Source of the DNA: a bacterium | GTDB taxonomy: Bacteria > Krumholzibacteriota > Krumholzibacteriia > G020349025 | DNA length: 64,000 bases | NCBI GenBank assembly: GCA_031362565.1 | Contig: JANLSU010000058.1 | Span: 1 to 64,000, forward strand | Direction: 5' to 3' | Part shown: piece after piece, positions 9,787 to 21,036 of the stretch | Numbering within the stretch: position 1 is the first letter of the stretch | How the letters are laid out: every line of letters starts with the position of its first letter | Notes under the pieces: model-generated | Seen by the model: the letters and a program-made list of their open reading frames with translations, nothing else | What the model was told of the DNA's origin: nothing | Database searches by the model: none | Made by a program: the position numbers and the translations under genes

Positions 9787-12261
9787 GTGCGCCTCGTCGT
9801 TCGCGCCGCGCTGCTCGTTGGGTTGTCGTGCCGGGCAGCGCTCGCCGCCGATCCCGCCGCGCTGTGTGCCATCGCGTCGAGCAGCCCCTGGACGCTCCGC
9901 GAACTCGAGACCCAGCACGTTCCCATCGTCAGTTACGACCCGGACACCGGCACGGCGTACGTCGTCGCGACGCCGGGCGACCAGCGCCGGCTCGCGGCAG
10001 CCGGATTCGCGCTCGCGACCGTCGAACCGGACGTCGATGCCCGGCGCCAGCGCCTCGCTGCGGCGCGCGCCCTCGGTGCCTATCACACCTACGACGAAAC
10101 GGTCGCCGAGGTCGAATCCCTCGCGGCGCAGTATCCCGCCATCTGCCGGCTGGAGACCCTCGGGCAAAGTGTCGAGGGCCGGCCGCTGCTCGGGCTGAAG
10201 ATTTCCGACGAACCGGCGATCGACGACCCCACCGAACCCGATGTGCTGTTCGTCGGCTGTCATCATGCGCGCGAATTCATGAGCGTCGAAGTGCCGCTCG
10301 ATCTCGCGCACACCCTGCTCGAGGGCTATGGGGTTCGCCCGCAGATCACCGGGCTCGTGGACTCGCGGGAAGTGTGGATCGTGCCGCTTCTCAATCCCGA
10401 CGGGCATGTGTTTCAGGAGGAGTACGCGGCTTCACCTGCTTGGTCGCCGCCCGGCTGGCGCAAGAACCGCCGGCCGAATCCGGACGGCACCTTCGGCATC
10501 GATCCGAACCGCAATTACAGTTTTCAGTGGGCGTACGACGACGAGGGCAGTTCGGCGGAGGGCACCGACGAGACCTACCGGGGCCCGGCGCCATTCTCCG
10601 AACCCGAGACGCAGGCGATGCGGCGATTGGTGGAACGCCAGCGCTTCGTGGTCGCCGTCTCGTTTCACAGTTTCGGCGGGCTTTTGCTCTATCCGTGGGG
10701 CTATACGCGCGACACCCTCACCGACGATCAACCGGTGTTCGCCGTTCTCGCCGACAGCATGGTGGGCTCGAACGGCTACCGGCCGGGGAACGCGTACTTC
10801 GGCACCATTTACAAGACGAACGGCGAATTCTGCGACTACCTCTATGGTGAGCTGAGCCTGCAAAAGCCGCAGCAAACCTTCGCCTTCACTTTCGAACTGA
10901 ACACCGGCGGAGAAGGTGGGTTCTGGCCGGACGAAACGCGCATCGCACCGACGTGTGCGGCCCTGCGGCCGGCCCATTTGTTTGCGATCGCCGCCGCGGG
11001 CGGCGTGCGCGGGCCGTTGGCGCCGCCACAGCCGCTCCTTGTGGCGCAGCAGGATTCCCAGGACCGGCGCCGCATCCAGCTCGATTGGACGCAGCCGGTC
11101 GATGCGGAGAATCCCGTCGACCACTATGAAGTGTTCGAGATTCTGAGTGCGCCGGTTGGAACCGCGGCGCCGGTCATCTGCGCCGCCGGTGCACGCACGG
11201 TGCTTGGGAGCGGGATCCCGCGGCCCGGTTCGGGGCACGTCGTCCTGCACGTCGATGCTCAACTGGAACCGCTCTGGGACTACGCCTATGTCGAAGCCCG
11301 TGGCCGGGACGGCGCGTGGCACGCGCTCCGTGGCACTGCGACGACCAACGCCTCACCGACGGGGCGCAACAGCGGCAATGGCTGGACCGGCCACGTGATC
11401 GATCGGCGGCTGGGGTTCGACATCGACGCGATCCAAGGCGACCACTTCGATCTCGCGCTGCGTTTGGATGCGGCGCCGACGGCGCCGCGCCCGCCGTACG
11501 TCGAAGCCCGACTCGACCTCGCCGCCACATTCCTCGAGGAGCGCAACGTCATCGATCCGCACGTCACCGGTACGCACTACACCGTGGTCTCCAACCGCGG
11601 CGGTATTGTGGGATTCGGCGTCACGGCGGTCGACGTTCAAGGCCAACGAACCGACAGCGAGATACGGTTCTTCGCGCTGCCCGTGACCGCGGTGTCGCTG
11701 CAGGATGTCGAAGTGGTGGCAGAGGGTCAAACGATCGAAGCACGCTGGCACCCGGCCAGCGGCGAAGCCCAAATCGAAGCCTGGGTGCGGGCGGTGCGGG
11801 CCGGTGACGCGGTGGCAAGCGTTCCTGAAGCGCCGGTTGCTGATGGCTTTGCGCGTGCCGCCACCGTGGCCGGAACGGACGGCGCGCTGCGTTTCGAGGC
11901 CGCACCGGGACGCTGGCGCGTGTTGCTCTGCGGTGTCGATGCGGAGGGGTCGCGTTGGTTCGGCCCCTGGGACATCGACGTGCAGAGTGCGACCCGCTTC
12001 GTTGCGGTTGCGAATCCTTGGCAGGGCTCGGGCACCATTCGCTTCGCAGTCGCGAACGCCGGCCCGACGCGCGTCGAAATTTGCCGTGCCGATGGGCGCT
12101 TGGTGCGGGTGTTGTCGAGAGGCGAACAAACCGCCGGCACTCACGCCGTGGCATGGGACGCGACGGATGGACAGGGCCGGCGGGTCGCGCCCGGCGTGTA
12201 CTTTGTCCGCTTGATGCACGCCGGCCGGGTTACGGCGCGGCGTCTGGTCCTGCTGCGCTGA
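9787..12261 (+). CDS. Secreted M14 zinc carboxypeptidase (carboxypeptidase T-like) with C-terminal FlgD-Ig/T9SS-like domain
   Basis: GCHHARE, LLNPDG, WRKNRR, GIDPNRNY, YRGPAPFSEPE, SFHS, FTFEL; C-terminus GRLVRVL...WDATDGQGRRVAPGVYFVRL. Confidence 0.9.
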   Translation: MRLVVRAALLVGLSCRAALAADPAALCAIASSSPWTLRELETQHVPIVSYDPDTGTAYVVATPGDQRRLAAAGFALATVEPDVDARRQRLAAARALGAYHTYDETVAEVESLAAQYPAICRLETLGQSVEGRPLLGLKISDEPAIDDPTEPDVLFVGCHHAREFMSVEVPLDLAHTLLEGYGVRPQITGLVDSREVWIVPLLNPDGHVFQEEYAASPAWSPPGWRKNRRPNPDGTFGIDPNRNYSFQWAYDDEGSSAEGTDETYRGPAPFSEPETQAMRRLVERQRFVVAVSFHSFGGLLLYPWGYTRDTLTDDQPVFAVLADSMVGSNGYRPGNAYFGTIYKTNGEFCDYLYGELSLQKPQQTFAFTFELNTGGEGGFWPDETRIAPTCAALRPAHLFAIAAAGGVRGPLAPPQPLLVAQQDSQDRRRIQLDWTQPVDAENPVDHYEVFEILSAPVGTAAPVICAAGARTVLGSGIPRPGSGHVVLHVDAQLEPLWDYAYVEARGRDGAWHALRGTATTNASPTGRNSGNGWTGHVIDRRLGFDIDAIQGDHFDLALRLDAAPTAPRPPYVEARLDLAATFLEERNVIDPHVTGTHYTVVSNRGGIVGFGVTAVDVQGQRTDSEIRFFALPVTAVSLQDVEVVAEGQTIEARWHPASGEAQIEAWVRAVRAGDAVASVPEAPVADGFARAATVAGTDGALRFEAAPGRWRVLLCGVDAEGSRWFGPWDIDVQSATRFVAVANPWQGSGTIRFAVANAGPTRVEICRADGRLVRVLSRGEQTAGTHAVAWDATDGQGRRVAPGVYFVRLMHAGRVTARRLVLLR

Positions 12262-13483
12262 GGCGCGATTCGCGCCGCGCCACCGCGGCGCAGGTCAGCG
12301 CGAAGAGAAGAGCCAGGCCCGCCGTGCGTGGCGCCTCGAGCAGCAGTCCCCATCCCGACCGGAACGGCGTATCGGCATACGGCCACGCCGCGGCGCACAA
12401 CAACCACGCCAACGCAATTCCCACCACATCGCGCCGGGAGGCCTTGCCGGCCGCGAACCGTCCGGCCCACGCGAAGAAGAGCGGCAATGCGAGCACCGCG
12501 AGATATTCCCACGCCACCCGCGCCACGAGTGGTGCCGCAGCAAGTGCGGCACCCGAGGCGAGACTGTCCAGTGCGCCACCTGCCGGCGCCGCGCGGGTCC
12601 GGCGTGCCAACCAAAGGAGGGCGGCGACGATGGCGCCGCTCGTGAGGATCGTAGCGGCGCGCTGCACGCCCGGCGCCACGATCCATGGCGTCGTGTCCGG
12701 ATTCGGAACCAACAGGCGCCAAAAGAACGCATCGAGCGACTGATTCGTGAACCAGCTGAAGTTGGCGCGTTCGAGCACCGGCAGCACATCACGCGCGTAG
12801 GTCACATAGGACGCGATGCCGGTCCACGGCAACGCGATCACGACCAGGCCCGCGAGCGCTGCCAGGGTGGCGAGCACCAAACGTCGTTCGCCACGCACCA
12901 GCCAGTAGGCGACGAGCGCGAGCGGCGTCAACTTGAGGAGCACCGCGGCCGCCAATGGCAGCGCCGCGCGCCACATGTGATGTTTTGCACGCGCTTGCCA
13001 CGCGAGCGCGACGAGCAGGAGCAGAACACCGCTCACCGATCCCAAACGTAAATCGAGAAACACCGGCGCAAAGGGTAACGCCAGCGCCACGACGAGTGCC
13101 CGCCGTCCGGCCGGCAGATTGAGGCGCGCGAAGATCGCCGCCGCCGCCACGTACGCCGCGGCCTCCAACAAGACCCAGATTCGCCGGCTCCACGTGAACG
13201 GCAGTGCCGTCAAAGGCTGCATGGCAAGAGCCGCGAACGGCGGCGGGTAGAAATAGCGCCCCACCCAACCGTGCCATCCGGGTGGACTCGCGGCCCGCAG
13301 GACCTCGGGGTCGTACGCATTCTGATGCGCCGCGAAGCAACGGGCGGCGGCATCGAAGGTCACGAAGTCGGAGTAGGGGGAGGGACGCAGGAGGGGCCGC
13401 ACCACGCCGAGCGCTGCGAACTGCAGCACGAGGACCGCGACCGCGACGCGGCAGGGGCCTCCGAGGCGAGCGGCGCCGGTCAT
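12230..13483 (-). CDS. Glycosyltransferase family 87 (DUF2029) membrane protein
   Basis: SDF..F..AAR, YFYPPP, KLTP, NQSL and many TM helices; SD AAGGAGG before ATG 13483. Confidence 0.8.
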   Translation of the reverse strand: MTGAARLGGPCRVAVAVLVLQFAALGVVRPLLRPSPYSDFVTFDAAARCFAAHQNAYDPEVLRAASPPGWHGWVGRYFYPPPFAALAMQPLTALPFTWSRRIWVLLEAAAYVAAAAIFARLNLPAGRRALVVALALPFAPVFLDLRLGSVSGVLLLLVALAWQARAKHHMWRAALPLAAAVLLKLTPLALVAYWLVRGERRLVLATLAALAGLVVIALPWTGIASYVTYARDVLPVLERANFSWFTNQSLDAFFWRLLVPNPDTTPWIVAPGVQRAATILTSGAIVAALLWLARRTRAAPAGGALDSLASGAALAAAPLVARVAWEYLAVLALPLFFAWAGRFAAGKASRRDVVGIALAWLLCAAAWPYADTPFRSGWGLLLEAPRTAGLALLFALTCAAVARRESRLSAAGPDAAP

Positions 13484-13573
13484 CGAGCCTCCTTCTTGGG
13501 TGGCGGCATCCGTGGAGGCGCGATCCACCGGCTCCACGATGTATGATGCGTCCCGCGTGCACAACGGTGCAAC

Positions 13574-14197
13574 GTGGAGGCTTGCCTGGATCCAGACAGG
13601 GGACTCGAACGCGACCACGTCGAGGCGTTCATCCTCGCCGGCGGCGAGAGCCGGCGCATGGGAACGTCGAAGGCGCGGCTCGTGTGGAAAAACCGGCCGC
13701 TCGTGGCGTCGCTGGCGGCGACGATCGCACCCGCGGTCGCTGCCGTGCGCCTGGTGACCAAACCGGGTACGGGGCTCGAGGATCTGGGGCTGCCGGTGCT
13801 GTACGACCCGGTGGCGGAGCCGGCGCTCGTGCACGGGATCGCCGCCGCCCTCGCGGCTCCAGGACCCGAATGGCGCTGGCTCTTGGCCTGCGACATGCCC
13901 GGCGTCGACGCGACGGTGCTTGCGGCGCTCTGGCAAGTGGCCCAGGCGGCGCGGGCGCCTGGGAGCTACGTGCAACGGCCGGACTGTGCTGATCTCGAGC
14001 CGCTCCCGTCCCTGTGGCACCGCGATTTGGGGCAGCGCGTCAACGCGGGCTGGGGCCTCGCGGCGCGCGATTGGGTGCGGCACGCGGGACTCGTTCCGTG
14101 GCACGTTCCACGCATCGGCGTCGAACGCTTCGCGAACGTCAACACGCCGGCGGAGTGGGAGGAATGGCAGTGGCGAGCTCGACGCGCGGCCGAATGA
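13574..14197 (+). CDS. mobA: Molybdenum cofactor guanylyltransferase
   Basis: ILAGGESRRMG..KA, LACDMP, EPL, FANVNTP. Confidence 0.88.
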   Translation: MEACLDPDRGLERDHVEAFILAGGESRRMGTSKARLVWKNRPLVASLAATIAPAVAAVRLVTKPGTGLEDLGLPVLYDPVAEPALVHGIAAALAAPGPEWRWLLACDMPGVDATVLAALWQVAQAARAPGSYVQRPDCADLEPLPSLWHRDLGQRVNAGWGLAARDWVRHAGLVPWHVPRIGVERFANVNTPAEWEEWQWRARRAAE

Positions 14198-14694
14198 AAA
14201 CATCGGCGCCGCGCTTGACGCATGTCGACGCGCGTGGCCGGGCGCGGATGGTGGATGTCGGTGCCAAACCGCCGACGGCGCGGCGGGCGGTCGCGCAAGG
14301 CCGGGTTGTGATGTCACGCGACGCGATGCGCGCCGTGCGCTCGGGAGCCAATCCCAAGGGCGACGTGCTGGCGGTTGCACGTCTGGCCGGGATTCAGGCC
14401 GCGAAACAGACGGCCGCGCTCATCCCTTTGTGTCACGTGTTGCCGCTCGATCACGTCGACGTCGCCATCCGCACCAATGTTCGCGCGAGTACCGTCGAGA
14501 TCGAATCGACGGTCGTCTGCTGGGCGCGAACCGGCGTCGAAATGGAAGCGATCATGGCGGTTTGCGTCGCGGCCGCGACGGTCTACGACATGTGCAAGGC
14601 TGCGGATCGCGCTATGCGCATCGAAGGCATCGAACTCATCGCGAAGTCGGGCGGGCAAAGCGGTGAATACCGCAAGCGCGCCCCCCGCGGCTGA
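14194..14694 (+). CDS. moaC: Cyclic pyranopterin monophosphate synthase
   Basis: LTHVD..GRARMVDV, KGDVL, LIPLCH, TGVEMEA, YDMCKA, KSGG. Confidence 0.96.
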   Translation: MKTSAPRLTHVDARGRARMVDVGAKPPTARRAVAQGRVVMSRDAMRAVRSGANPKGDVLAVARLAGIQAAKQTAALIPLCHVLPLDHVDVAIRTNVRASTVEIESTVVCWARTGVEMEAIMAVCVAAATVYDMCKAADRAMRIEGIELIAKSGGQSGEYRKRAPRG

Positions 14695-14773: not shown

Positions 14774-14953
14774 ATGCCTTGCGGTCGAATCGGTTCAACG
14801 GAGCTCTTGCTCATCGTCCTGCTGATCGTCGTTCTGTTCGGGGCGGGACGCTTACCAGAACTCGGCAAAGGCTTGGGACTCGGGATTCGCGGTTTCAAGA
14901 AAGCGATCAAGGAAAGTGAAGAGAAGGACGATAAACCGGCGAAGCGTGAGTGA
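14774..14953 (+). CDS. tatA: Twin-arginine translocase TatA/E
   Basis: ELLLIVLLIVVLFGAGRLPELGKGLGLGIRGFKKA. Confidence 0.93.
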   Translation: MPCGRIGSTELLLIVLLIVVLFGAGRLPELGKGLGLGIRGFKKAIKESEEKDDKPAKRE

Positions 14954-14965
14954 GCGTGGTTGCAT

Positions 14966-15097
14966 GAGGCCAGGGTTCCTGCTGGAGGTGTCGGTTCATT
15001 CAGACTTGACTGAGACGTCGTTGGTGAGCGCGCAGTCGTGCACAGCATCCCAAGCAAGTAGTCAAGTTCCACCTCGTTAACACAGGACCCCGGCCTC
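14966..15097 (-). ncRNA. Putative unclassified structured ncRNA (~132 nt rod)
   Basis: Nested stems GAGGCC/GGCCTC, GGGTCCTG/CAGGAACCC, GAGGTG/CACCTC, ACTTGACT/AGTCAAGT, TTGG/CCAA; begins 7 nt after a sigma70 -10. Confidence 0.65.
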
Positions 15098-15104
15098 GGA
15101 ATTC

Positions 15105-15133
15105 AAACTACTCCCGGCCGCAACTCGTGTCAA
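15105..15133 (-). promoter_or_regulatory. Sigma70 promoter driving the putative ncRNA
   Basis: TTGACA(15133-15128)-N17-TAGTTT(15110-15105). Confidence 0.7.
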
Positions 15134-15416
15134 CGCCGGTGCGGCGCTGTAACTCCTGATGGCGTAGTGCTTTGCAAGTTGGTTGCTGCGCCGCGGTGCG
15201 GCGGCGTGGTAAGCACCGAAGTCGGGTCGGCGGGCGCTGTTGAGCCCAGGGTTCTCCAGACGTTGGCGGCCGGGCGGCACAGTGGTCCGGAAGGTGCTGT
15301 TCCGAAAGCGTCGGCACCCGGCGCGTCCGGATTCCAGAGCGCCAAGGTGCGGAGCGGGCGGACTTTGGCAGTGCGGGCGCAGGAATCTGCGCCGGTCAAC
15401 GACCTTCGAGGTGCGA

Positions 15417-17141
15417 GTGGCGCGATCCGCGTTGCAGGTGCATCGAACGGCTCGGCCGCCGGCGCTGCAGCGCGCCTTGTTGCGCTTGCAGCGCGGCGTA
15501 CAGCGGCGGTTGCAGGCCGAGCTGCGTGCCTACACGGGTGGGAACTCTCCCGCCCTCGAGCGCTACTACCGCGACTACCTGCGCGATTTTCGCCGCCAGC
15601 ACACGGTTTCCAATTATGGCGACCTCCACGTCGCCATGCTGGACGCCGACGTCATCCTGGTAGGCGACTACCACACTTTGCGGCAGTCCCAAGAGACCGC
15701 GCTGCGGCTGCTTGAACGCGCTATTGTCGATCCGCGTCCCGTCGCTCTCGCCCTCGAGATGGTGCACACCGAGAACCAAGCGGTTCTCGATCAGTTCATG
15801 AGCGGGGCGCTGGATGAGACGGAGTTCCTCGCCGCGATCGCCTACCGGGACACTTGGAACTTCGAGTGGGGCAACTACCGGCCGTTGTTCGAAGCGGCGC
15901 GCCAAGCGGGCGTGCGGGTGTTCGGTGTCAATGAACGCCAAACGACCGGCGGCCTTCGCGAACGCGATGCGCGCATCGCGGCGCGCCTCGTCGAAATTGG
16001 CACCGCGGCGCCGGACGCGCGTTTGATCGTCCTCATTGGCGACCTGCATTTGGCGTCCAACCATCTGCCGGCGGCGCTGGGGCGCGGGCTCGCGGCCGCC
16101 GGTCTCGAACGGCAGAGCTTGGTCGTGCATCAGAACAGTGATTCGCTGTACTGGAGCCTGGCCGAACGCGGCAACGAGGCGCGGACGCAGGTGGTTCGCT
16201 TGGGCGCGGATCGGTTCTGCGTCATGGAAGTGCCGCCGTACGTCAAGTTGCAGTCTTACTTGGGGTGGGAACGCCGCCAAGCCGAGGGGCGGCTCGGTGC
16301 GGGTGACGCCCCAGGCGACGAGGACGAGGACGAGTTTTGGGATGACGACCAGGCGGCAGCAGGTGCGGACAGCGTCGTGCAGCATCTGGCGGGGCGGCTG
16401 GCGGAGTTCCTCGGATTGCCGCCGGTCGTGGCCGCGTTCAGTGTCTATGCGAACGTCGATGCCGCCTTTTTCGAAGCGCTGGCCGGCGCTGGATTGTCCG
16501 CGGAGCGCGCCCGCGAGATTCAATTGCTGGCGGGGTCGAGCCGCGGCTGCTGGGTCCCCGAGTTGAATGCGGTCTACCTGCCGCACCTGTCGGTCAATCA
16601 CGCGGCCGAAGAGGCACTGCATGTGCTCCAGTGGCAGGCGAGTGGGTTCGACACCGGGCGCGACGATGCGTACGAGGACTTCTACGCGCGGGCACTGTTC
16701 GCGTGCCTCGGATATGCGGCGTCGAAAATCGTCAACCCGCGGCGGCGCACGACGACCGACGCGGAGCTGCGAGCGTTCCTCGGTGCTGCCAGCCGCCGCA
16801 TGCGCGTCCCCGATTTGGCGTTTCGCAAACGCGTCGCGCGCTTCGTGATTCAACATCGCGAGCATGAAGCGGCGCGCCGCGACGGCGGCCGCGGCCGCCT
16901 CAAACAAATCTACGGCCAGCGTCTCGAAGTCCGGCTCGAAGTGTGTTGGACGTTGGGATACATGCTCGGTGAAGTCCTTGCCGCCGCGGTCCTCGATGGA
17001 CGCGTCACGCCCCAGGAGCTACGCGACCTGGTGACGGCACCGCGCGGCCCGCATCCCTCGATCGCCTACTTCGCACTCGCCGATCGCCTGGCGCGAGTCG
17101 CCGCATTGCCGGCCGAAAGCGACGCGGGCCGTCGGGTGTAA
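15417..17141 (+). CDS. ChaN/EreA/TIKI-superfamily domain protein with long C-terminal extension
   Basis: VILVGDYH, ALALEMV, W.NYRPLFEAAR, RERD, LIGDLHL; start uncertain (open from 15240). Confidence 0.7.
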   Translation: MARSALQVHRTARPPALQRALLRLQRGVQRRLQAELRAYTGGNSPALERYYRDYLRDFRRQHTVSNYGDLHVAMLDADVILVGDYHTLRQSQETALRLLERAIVDPRPVALALEMVHTENQAVLDQFMSGALDETEFLAAIAYRDTWNFEWGNYRPLFEAARQAGVRVFGVNERQTTGGLRERDARIAARLVEIGTAAPDARLIVLIGDLHLASNHLPAALGRGLAAAGLERQSLVVHQNSDSLYWSLAERGNEARTQVVRLGADRFCVMEVPPYVKLQSYLGWERRQAEGRLGAGDAPGDEDEDEFWDDDQAAAGADSVVQHLAGRLAEFLGLPPVVAAFSVYANVDAAFFEALAGAGLSAERAREIQLLAGSSRGCWVPELNAVYLPHLSVNHAAEEALHVLQWQASGFDTGRDDAYEDFYARALFACLGYAASKIVNPRRRTTTDAELRAFLGAASRRMRVPDLAFRKRVARFVIQHREHEAARRDGGRGRLKQIYGQRLEVRLEVCWTLGYMLGEVLAAAVLDGRVTPQELRDLVTAPRGPHPSIAYFALADRLARVAALPAESDAGRRV

Positions 17142-20497: not shown

Positions 20498-20526
20498 TTG
20501 ACAGCCTTGCCGGGGCTCTTTAGGCT
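20498..20526 (+). promoter_or_regulatory. Sigma70 promoter, likely leaderless, for yceD-rpmF-plsX-fab
   Basis: TTGACA-N17-TAGGCT, 6 nt, ATG 20533. Confidence 0.7.
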
Positions 20527-20532
20527 CGCGGC

Positions 20533-21036
20533 ATGGGAAACGACGGCATGACATTGCGGCTGGCGGCGCTGCCGCCCGGACACAGCACGCACCACGGCCA
20601 TTTGGAGTTCGTGGTGTTCGATGCGGCCGAGGAAGAAGAGCCGCACGCCGTTGACGTGACGGCCGAGGTCGACAAAATGGGGCCGCGGATCCACGTGCGA
20701 GGCCATGTCGAAGGCCACGCGCGCTCCATCTGCCACCGGTGCCTCGAGACCTTCGAGCGGCCGCTGGCAAGCGACTTCGTGCTGACGCTGCAGAAGACAG
20801 CGGAGCCCGCCGACGAGGATTTCGTCGTGCTGGGCGACAACATGGTGGAATTCGATCTCGCGCCGCATGCGCGGGAGGCGGTTCTTCTCGAGGAGCCCAT
20901 ACAGCTCCTCTGCGATCCGAACTGCCGCGGGCTTTGTTCGCAGTGTGGCGCGGATCTGAATCAGGGTCGTTGTGGCTGCCGGCCACAGTCGGACCCGCGC
21001 TGGGCGCCGCTCGGGGACCTGCGGCCCTCGCTTTAA
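20533..21036 (+). CDS. yceD: DUF177/YceD family protein
   Basis: CHRCL, LCDPNCRGLCSQCG.DLN, DPRWAPL; upstream of rpmF. Confidence 0.92.
   Translation: MGNDGMTLRLAALPPGHSTHHGHLEFVVFDAAEEEEPHAVDVTAEVDKMGPRIHVRGHVEGHARSICHRCLETFERPLASDFVLTLQKTAEPADEDFVVLGDNMVEFDLAPHAREAVLLEEPIQLLCDPNCRGLCSQCGADLNQGRCGCRPQSDPRWAPLGDLRPSL

Follow-up and report, generated by a model that had tools for sequence, protein, structure and literature searches.

What, if anything, is transcribed from the minus strand between tatA and a divergent ChaN-like gene in an uncultured bacterium of the phylum Krumholzibacteriota? The DNA analysed here (the window) comprises 64,000 nucleotides (nt), positions 1 to 64,000 of the forward strand of contig JANLSU010000058.1 in GenBank assembly GCA_031362565.1, and the question was raised by a reading of its letters without database searches (the sequence-only reading), which had proposed a stand-alone, rod-shaped non-coding RNA of about 132 nt with its own promoter, either a compact 6S-like RNA or a new class. 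We consider it very probable that a real RNA gene lies on this strand. Comparison with relatives upheld the stand-alone gene, as its promoter, first base, terminal helix and about 60 invariant nt are kept and it occurs as a single copy at the same place in 7/7 genomes; judged from these sequences, it is an order-specific non-coding RNA family that is new to Rfam 15.

On the minus strand, TTGACA (15133-15128) is followed by a 17-nt spacer, TAGTTT (15110-15105), seven further nucleotides (GAATTCC) and a G at 15097, so that the predicted start at about 15098-15097 falls, as claimed, at the first base of the fold-back. Across 12 loci, namely the window and 11 related ones, the exact 17-nt spacing and the -10 bases T1, A2 and T6 are kept together with TTGACA, the letters of the spacer being free to vary despite its fixed length, and the first G of the terminal helix P1, GAGGCC(A)GG, always stands 6-8 nt from the -10 hexamer. 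All 12 loci therefore show what defines a sigma-70-type site (TTGACA, a spacer of 16-18 nt, T1, A2 and T6 in the -10 hexamer and a start 6-8 nt further on), and by conservation of this pattern the predicted promoter is of the sigma-70 type, with the transcript likely to start at the first G of P1. The window has two occurrences of the pattern TTGACA-N17-TAnnnT, where 0.03 would be expected. The description of the promoter as near-consensus needs qualifying, since the -10 hexamer agrees with TATAAT at just 3/6 positions (T1, A2 and T6), and because of this a strict consensus sigma-70 scan listed no site at the RNA promoter. The second occurrence in the window (TTGACA...TAGGCT) ends 6 nt ahead of the ATG at 20533 on the plus strand, where a gene of the YceD family begins (PF02620, E 4e-26; region 20498-21036, plus strand). 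Because the pattern ends so close to the ATG, the YceD-family mRNA is probably leaderless, and the same promoter type would drive a ribosome-related housekeeping gene. The conserved pattern provides an anchored promoter consensus for this lineage and could aid the annotation of other genes. A further promoter-like site, TTGACA-N16-TAGACT, lies about 1.1 kb upstream of moaC and is common to three genomes of the family labelled f6.

The sequence from 15097 to 14966 is predicted to fold with a minimum free energy (MFE) of -61.4 kcal/mol, against a mean of -40.6 kcal/mol for shuffled sequences (z -5.10), and 0/200 shuffles were as stable. The MFE fold holds every stem that had been named from the letters: the ends of the RNA pair with each other (GAGGCCGGGGUCCUG, opening at G 15097, with CAGGAACCCUGGCCUC, closing at 14966), and GAGGUG/CACCUC, ACUUGACU/AGUCAAGU and UUGG/CCAA follow inside them. 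The asymmetric bulge that had been given as 12 nt is also present, as a 3' asymmetric loop, but is 13 nt long. The GC content is indeed lower than that of the flanking genes, at 0.55-0.58 for the RNA versus 0.65-0.75 in the flanks on both sides. The homologues, which are 121-141 nt long, differ in length by non-multiples of three; a coding region was rejected on this ground, in agreement with the earlier statement that there is no credible open reading frame (ORF). Full-length homologues have both of their ends exactly at P1. Beyond the 3' strand of P1 the sole conservation is due to tatA, which is encoded on the opposite strand, and we infer that the mature RNA ends with CCUGGCCUC, at 14966.

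How widely is this RNA distributed? A BLAST search against 40 relatives found it in five of the six genomes of the same family, one match spanning exactly 15098-14966. A covariance model (R1), built from six sequences and then used in wider searches, detected one copy in each of the 7/7 genomes of the order (a single family with five genera), and none in 144 genomes from the other eight families of the class or in 146 genomes of other families from a phylum-wide sample; these two samples overlap, and the larger scans were run with stricter filters. A gapped pattern scan of 185,579 species genomes recovered five genomes of the RNA-bearing family, and six metagenome contigs with the RNA were found in the same way. 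The total set holds 13 sequences, 12 of them distinct, and on these 13 loci R1 scores 103-133 bits on the minus (RNA) strand versus 14-20 bits on the other. Four DNA runs gave only three short contigs from close relatives, with a few substitutions, which speak neither for nor against expression. A pattern match in Nostoc and a 30-nt match in genome G021 were rejected as homologues, as neither gave a covariance model match.

In its own genome, which is 100% complete by marker genes and comprises 133 contigs, the RNA is single-copy; a second match there (33 nt, contig C91) is GC-rich sequence without TTGACA and was set aside. Many genomic copies had been named as the sign of a miniature inverted-repeat transposable element (MITE), and the repeat reading is ruled out by the single full copy in this genome and the one model match in each of the seven genomes. 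The ChaN-like orthologues at 23 loci of other families have no adjoining tatA or RNA, nor does moaC at 23 loci of other families, and therefore synteny cannot extend the search for homologues. When the 23 ChaN-like loci were searched for diverged homologues with filters off, the best covariance model score was 15.2 bits (E 0.36). On the evidence of these searches the RNA family does not extend beyond a single order of an uncultured phylum.

In the alignment of the RNA 58 columns are invariant and 11 nearly so, the mean column identity is 77%, and the four neighbouring proteins in the same loci are only 48-67% identical. Each of the 12 distinct sequences is predicted to form a rod, with z-scores from -1.85 to -5.10, at or below -2.5 in nine of them. 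Within the core helices 98.6% of 359 alignment cells are standard pairs; if one partner is displaced by 1-3 columns, the share drops to 27-53%. Changes in the core amount to one compensatory exchange and 11 further pair types, the one-sided changes being of the kinds G-U/A-U/G-C and U-G/U-A/C-G. The compensatory exchange, G-C to C-G, is found in helix P5 of one metagenome sequence, and P5 also changes from U-G to U-A in two distinct sequences; P1 has two one-sided changes (G-U/A-U), and the 5' strand of P3 varies yet pairs with an invariant 3' strand, with G-U replaced by A-U in two distinct sequences. As the core is too conserved for covariation, structural support comes instead from the variable parts. 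In helix P2, insertions in the 5' and 3' strands are gained and lost jointly among relatives, and the apical sequences are unrelated between genera, one species having a 12-nt deletion, while the apical stem closes regardless. Furthermore, chimeras between 5' and 3' halves of 10 sequences (three near-duplicates having been dropped) lose 2.7 kcal/mol on average, 73% of the 90 chimeras being less stable than the parental mean, and the stability of the cognate pairs was equalled in only 79 of 20,000 partner permutations.

The same folds bear on the strand. It could be supposed that there is no RNA gene on the minus strand and that the element is a 3' untranslated region or terminator hairpin of the tatA operon on the plus strand, or acts at the level of DNA, given that it directly follows the tatA stop codon and that its reverse complement folds too (mean -52.2 kcal/mol). 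The sense strand, however, is the more stable in 12/12 loci (mean -60.8 kcal/mol), and many conserved G-U pairs of the RNA turn into C-A mismatches when read on the other strand. Moreover, the spacing kept between P1 and an invariant TTGACA-N17-TAnnnT makes no sense for a plus-strand element, a U-tract is lacking on either side, and the element is single-copy and hence not a repeat. We find this alternative barely credible.

An unexpected part of the predicted structure is a helix that can slip between two registers. The 3' sequence AGUCAAGU has two possible partners, the tandem 8-mers ACUUGACU (the register P4) and GCUUGGUU (the register ALT) on the 5' side, and both 8-mers are nearly invariant; the CUUGACU of the first is identical in 13/13 sequences. 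The ALT pairing runs on into P5 to give a helix of 14 bp, and leaves an internal loop of 8 nt on the 5' side and 15 nt on the 3' side, the latter being able to form a mini-hairpin. RNAalifold picks the ALT register on the 13 sequences, and about 98% of cells are paired in P4 and in ALT alike. The one-sided changes slightly favour ALT: a change from U to C at column 97 loses an A-U pair in the P4 register and makes a G-C pair in ALT, the changes from G to A at column 41 and from U to C at column 48 remain paired in ALT, and the pair formed by columns 41 and 97 in ALT is G-U in nine sequences, G-C in two and A-U in one. When each register was forced in turn, P4 was ahead by 2.4-5.9 kcal/mol in 6/12 sequences, the two were within 0.8 kcal/mol in 3/12, and ALT was ahead by 2.5-3.7 kcal/mol in 3/12. 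One strand with two conserved partners makes the slipping helix a defined object for structure probing. The positions of these elements, and of the neighbouring features, are given in Table 1.

Table 1 Features of the RNA locus and its surroundings (window positions, except where another locus is named).
Feature	Position	Strand	Basis or remark
RNA, 132 nt, rod-shaped (121-141 nt in relatives)	14966..15097	minus	fold and covariance model R1
-35 hexamer TTGACA	15128..15133	minus	sequence reading; invariant in 12/12 loci
-10 hexamer TAGTTT (family consensus TA[G/C]nnT)	15105..15110	minus	17 nt past the -35 hexamer
P1 5' strand GAGGCCGGG (family GAGGCCAGG)	15089..15097	minus	9 pairs, 100% of cells paired
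P3 5' strand GAGGUG (relatives: GGGGG, GGGAG or CGGGG)	15070..15075	minus	
First tandem 8-mer ACUUGACU	15060..15067	minus	register P4 with AGUCAAGU
Second tandem 8-mer ACUUGCUU (GCUUGGUU in relatives)	15052..15059	minus	register ALT with AGUCAAGU
P5 5' strand GGGAUGC	15045..15051	minus	common to both registers
Variable apical region	15019..15044	minus	17-29 nt
P5 3' strand and shared partner AGUCAAGU (15011-15004)	15004..15018	minus	GUCUC-GUC-AG nearly invariant
3' internal loop CUGAAUGAACCGACA, then CACCUCC (P3 3' strand, anti-Shine-Dalgarno-like)	14984..15003	minus	
P1 3' strand CCUGGCCUC	14966..14974	minus	invariant in 13/13 sequences
tatA, convergent	14774..14953	plus	Pfam TatA_B_E, E 9e-19
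ChaN-like gene (Cofac_haem_bdg), divergent	15240..17141	plus	upstream in 10/12 related loci
f6-family promoter-like sites	L083:377 (+), L085:3086 (-), L087:3081 (-)		upstream of moaC

Does the RNA belong to a known class? With Rfam 15 there was no match at the gathering score in the whole window, none at E<=10 in 14800-15300 (501 nt) and none at E<=10 on the RNA in the 11 homologous loci, where the weak matches obtained lie off the RNA (CRISPR-DR29 and a frameshift element, E 0.9-7). The suggestion of a new class thus survives the Rfam check that had been proposed for it, since no Rfam 15 family fits the window or its homologous loci. The absence of features of tRNA and transfer-messenger RNA (tmRNA), noted earlier, is borne out by searches that found neither at the RNA, and so is that of a signal recognition particle (SRP) motif: the genome's small SRP RNA lies elsewhere (G000:C24:5375-5473, 77.1 bits), no Rfam SRP model matches in the window, and this identity was rejected.

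The 6S-like branch of the earlier proposal was not supported, because a canonical 6S RNA of 179 nt is encoded elsewhere in the genome (G000:C15:1885-2063, 71.4 bits, above the cut-off) and the RNA bears no likeness to the 6S model. It could still be imagined as a second, compact 6S-like RNA, which would mimic an open promoter and sequester the RNA polymerase holoenzyme. Some bacteria have two 6S RNAs, and the RNA resembles 6S RNA (RF00013) in outline: each is a rod with paired ends and a mid-rod internal loop, transcribed from its own promoter of the housekeeping type (a strong one here), and each is without an obvious terminator, its ends probably arising from processing. The uneven loop of the ALT register, with its possible mini-hairpin, could be taken for the promoter bubble. 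Against this stand the lack of covariance model similarity (no Rfam 6S match at E<=10, here or in the 11 homologues) and a length that is below that of the genome's own 6S RNA and 40-60 nt below what is typical. Moreover, the bubble exists in only one of the two registers, ALT, which is the better one in 3/12 sequences, level with P4 in 3 and the worse one in 6, where the predicted fold closes the bubble. On these structural models we regard a second 6S RNA as very unlikely. The canonical 6S RNA (L003:1501-1679, minus strand) has itself an MFE of -81.1 (z -4.3) and is preceded by a weaker promoter-like sequence, TTGCGC-N18-TAAGCT.

The RNA can also be compared with the Y RNAs, including YrlA, that associate with Ro60 (Rsr). 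These share with it a length of about 120-130 nt, a terminal stem formed from both ends and a conserved internal-loop sequence thought to dock protein, and the CUUGACU and GAUCCGA motifs may loosely resemble the Ro-binding helix. The RNA differs from them in that it has no tRNA-like domain, that no Rfam Y RNA model matches in the window or the 11 homologous loci, and that its complete genome has no match to TROVE/Ro60 (PF05731), which was detected in control genomes.

The surroundings of the RNA raise the possibility that it acts where it is made. It lies between the divergent ChaN-like gene and a convergent row of tatA, moaC and mobA, and among the 12 related loci tatA is present in 12, convergent with the RNA in every case, the ChaN-like gene in 10, moaC in 10 and mobA in 9; the order holds wherever the contigs reach, and in the two loci without the ChaN-like gene the contig ends first. 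The distance of 12 nt that had been given between the RNA and the convergent tatA stop was correct, and the corresponding gap is 3-19 nt in 10/12 loci and 64 nt in the other two. The terminator scan found no terminator-like site at the end of the RNA, in keeping with the claim that no U-tract follows it. As there is no terminator and the gap is so short in most loci, read-through antisense to tatA is possible. The RNA could thus be a cis-antisense, convergent-transcription regulator of mobA-moaC-tatA, of which the structured 5' domain would serve for stability or in which the two-register helix would gate read-through.

Several observations speak for such a role. Where the gap is 3-19 nt, the tatA mRNA is bound to extend into the RNA gene, the convergence with tatA is universal among the 12 loci, the RNA end lacks a terminator-like site, and two mutually exclusive helices are available with predicted energies 0.5-5.9 kcal/mol apart. 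The genome is also without a recognisable molybdenum cofactor (Moco) riboswitch, RF01055 having no match anywhere in it at E<=1. The RNA itself was rejected as a Moco riboswitch, as it does not match RF01055 and lies downstream of and antisense to mobA-moaC-tatA, not in a 5' leader. A precedent for a riboswitch placed in this way is described in the available text of PMC2566862 and of a survey, PMC9943018: an antisense RNA controlled by an S-box riboswitch, downstream of the ubiG operon of Clostridium acetobutylicum. As far as that text goes, the two systems share a structured RNA with its own promoter at the 3' end of an operon, pointing into it, and possible alternative pairings. The promoter of the RNA indeed lies downstream of the operon and converges on it, but an aptamer with a terminator or antiterminator platform was not found by Rfam, by the terminator scan or in the conservation after P1, and compared with the portions of the ubiG work available, the only clue to a ligand is the neighbouring Moco genes. 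Conservation outside coding sequence stops at P1, leaving no conserved expression platform past it, and no known aptamer is present. Furthermore, a purely cis-antisense RNA needs no conservation of its own, whereas 58 columns are invariant here, and synteny extends over all five genes of the neighbourhood throughout the order, so that adjacency says little; that of the RNA and tatA may be mere inheritance. On balance we think regulation in cis unlikely, and we see only a slim chance that the two-register helix is a true toggle, responsive to a ligand, a protein or temperature, which sets how far convergent transcription reads into tatA-moaC-mobA. Antisense gating, if real, would add a rare regulatory architecture, and such a toggle would represent a new class of antisense-acting, riboswitch-like RNA for molybdenum cofactor and Tat genes, in a lineage without a recognisable known Moco riboswitch.

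Another possibility is raised by the 3' side of the rod. Opposite the slipping helix lies an invariant loop of 15 nt followed by CACCUCC, and the UGA-CCGACACCUCC of this loop region is identical in 13/13 sequences. CACCUCC is the core of the genome's own 16S rRNA 3' end (...GGAUCACCUCCUUUCU), and it is always paired, with a purine-rich 5' strand of varying sequence (GGGGG, GGGAG, CGGGG or GAGGUG). Mimicry of the 16S 3' end was rejected, the likeness being confined to GAUC and CACCUCC. The RNA might nevertheless be a small RNA that base-pairs in trans with the ribosome-binding sites of mRNAs, using as its seed either CACCUCC or whichever 8-mer, ACUUGACU or GCUUGGUU, is exposed. In one register or the other, short stretches without variation are predicted to be unpaired, and CACCUCC stays invariant while its pairing partner varies. 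However, CACCUCC is paired in every predicted fold, the invariant region is much longer than a seed, and the Rho-independent terminator or U-tail typical of Hfq-type small RNAs is missing, which makes base-pairing of this kind improbable in our view. With a 15-nt seed, true targets in a genome of 5.4 Mb would be lost among chance matches.

We tentatively favour instead an action in trans in which the RNA is a protein-binding decoy or scaffold, a judgement that falls somewhat short of an even chance and covers the statement as a whole, its mechanism included. Protein binding is favoured because the invariant stretches are long and lie on both strands, paired bases among them, as is seen in the RNAs of ribonucleoprotein particles; cis-antisense action would not require conservation of this kind, and the seeds of base-pairing RNAs tend to be short. 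In the proposed mechanism, the sigma-70-type promoter would fire 6-8 nt ahead of the first G of the invariant, GC-rich terminal helix of 9 bp, polymerase would enter the antisense of the tatA tail, which is C-rich and G-poor, to be stopped there, perhaps by Rho, and the 3' end would be trimmed back to the terminal helix. Termination of the Rho type and trimming are suggested by the lack of a terminator and by the composition of the 80 nt that follow on the RNA strand, rich in C and poor in G in 12/12 loci (C 26-32 versus G 12-22). The mature rod would then bind a protein in trans, following the logic of 6S, Y or CsrB-type RNAs, and the protein would dock at the block of about 60 invariant nt around the middle of the rod. 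This block holds the slipping helix, in which the pairing of AGUCAAGU with one 8-mer would expose the other.

A number of points weigh against this protein-binding reading and the structure on which it builds. Covariation in relatives had been put forward as a check on the RNA; the tatA-adjacent homologues exist and keep their pairing as described above, but covariation within the core is not significant, the observed score being reached by 32/500 column shuffles, and a both-sided change is seen at just one pair. The scarcity of covariation reflects a core with hardly any variation and a set of no more than 12 distinct sequences, which are related to one another. In P2, the gap between cognate (-8.25 kcal/mol) and non-cognate (-6.55 kcal/mol) duplexes is modest. 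The Rho step draws on base composition only, and the tight, conserved placement at the tatA stop together with the missing terminator would fit cis-antisense action equally well.

The RNA is probably abundant and important to the cells that carry it, considering that it is single-copy, that its promoter is among the best conserved in the window and that it contains about 60 invariant nt. It joins the orphan structured non-coding RNA motifs that have emerged from surveys of intergenic regions (PMC11109978, PMC8632094 and PMC6429828). From what the available text of these surveys describes, the RNA resembles such motifs in being a GC-poor, conserved and structured intergenic element found by comparative analysis, and differs in its limitation to a single order of an uncultured phylum, its absence from Rfam 15, an unusually well-conserved promoter and the two-register helix. 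Almost nothing is known of the RNA biology of this phylum, and literature searches, as far as the text of the records extends, returned no paper that deals with non-coding RNAs in either Krumholzibacteria or Eisenbacteria. The family now has a working covariance model and is currently missed by annotation pipelines. Its range is one small order, which makes the finding useful but not startling.

Some observations concern the neighbouring genes. The longest ORF of the ChaN-like gene starts at 15240 with TTG, while the matches of its relatives mostly begin around residue 60-80, which places the probable true start near 15456; a GC-rich stretch of about 320 nt (15134-15455) separates the RNA promoter from the conserved part of the gene. 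In two relatives the frame around the ChaN-like match contains one in-frame TGA (G002:C35:9597-11219 and G003:C1:1537141-1538748), and in three genomes from other families the frame that surrounds the moaC match likewise has one in-frame TGA (G030:C13:18790-19245, G040:C25:2823-3278 and G038:C1:579833-580270). These TGA codons could reflect a frame read on beyond the gene, a frameshift or selenocysteine. Finally, an ORF of 716 amino acids on the minus strand (12230-14380) has a GT87 glycosyltransferase domain only in residues 377-604, and its first 270 or so codons (13574-14380) overlap mobA and moaC of the other strand, because of which this part is probably a high-GC shadow extension and not coding.

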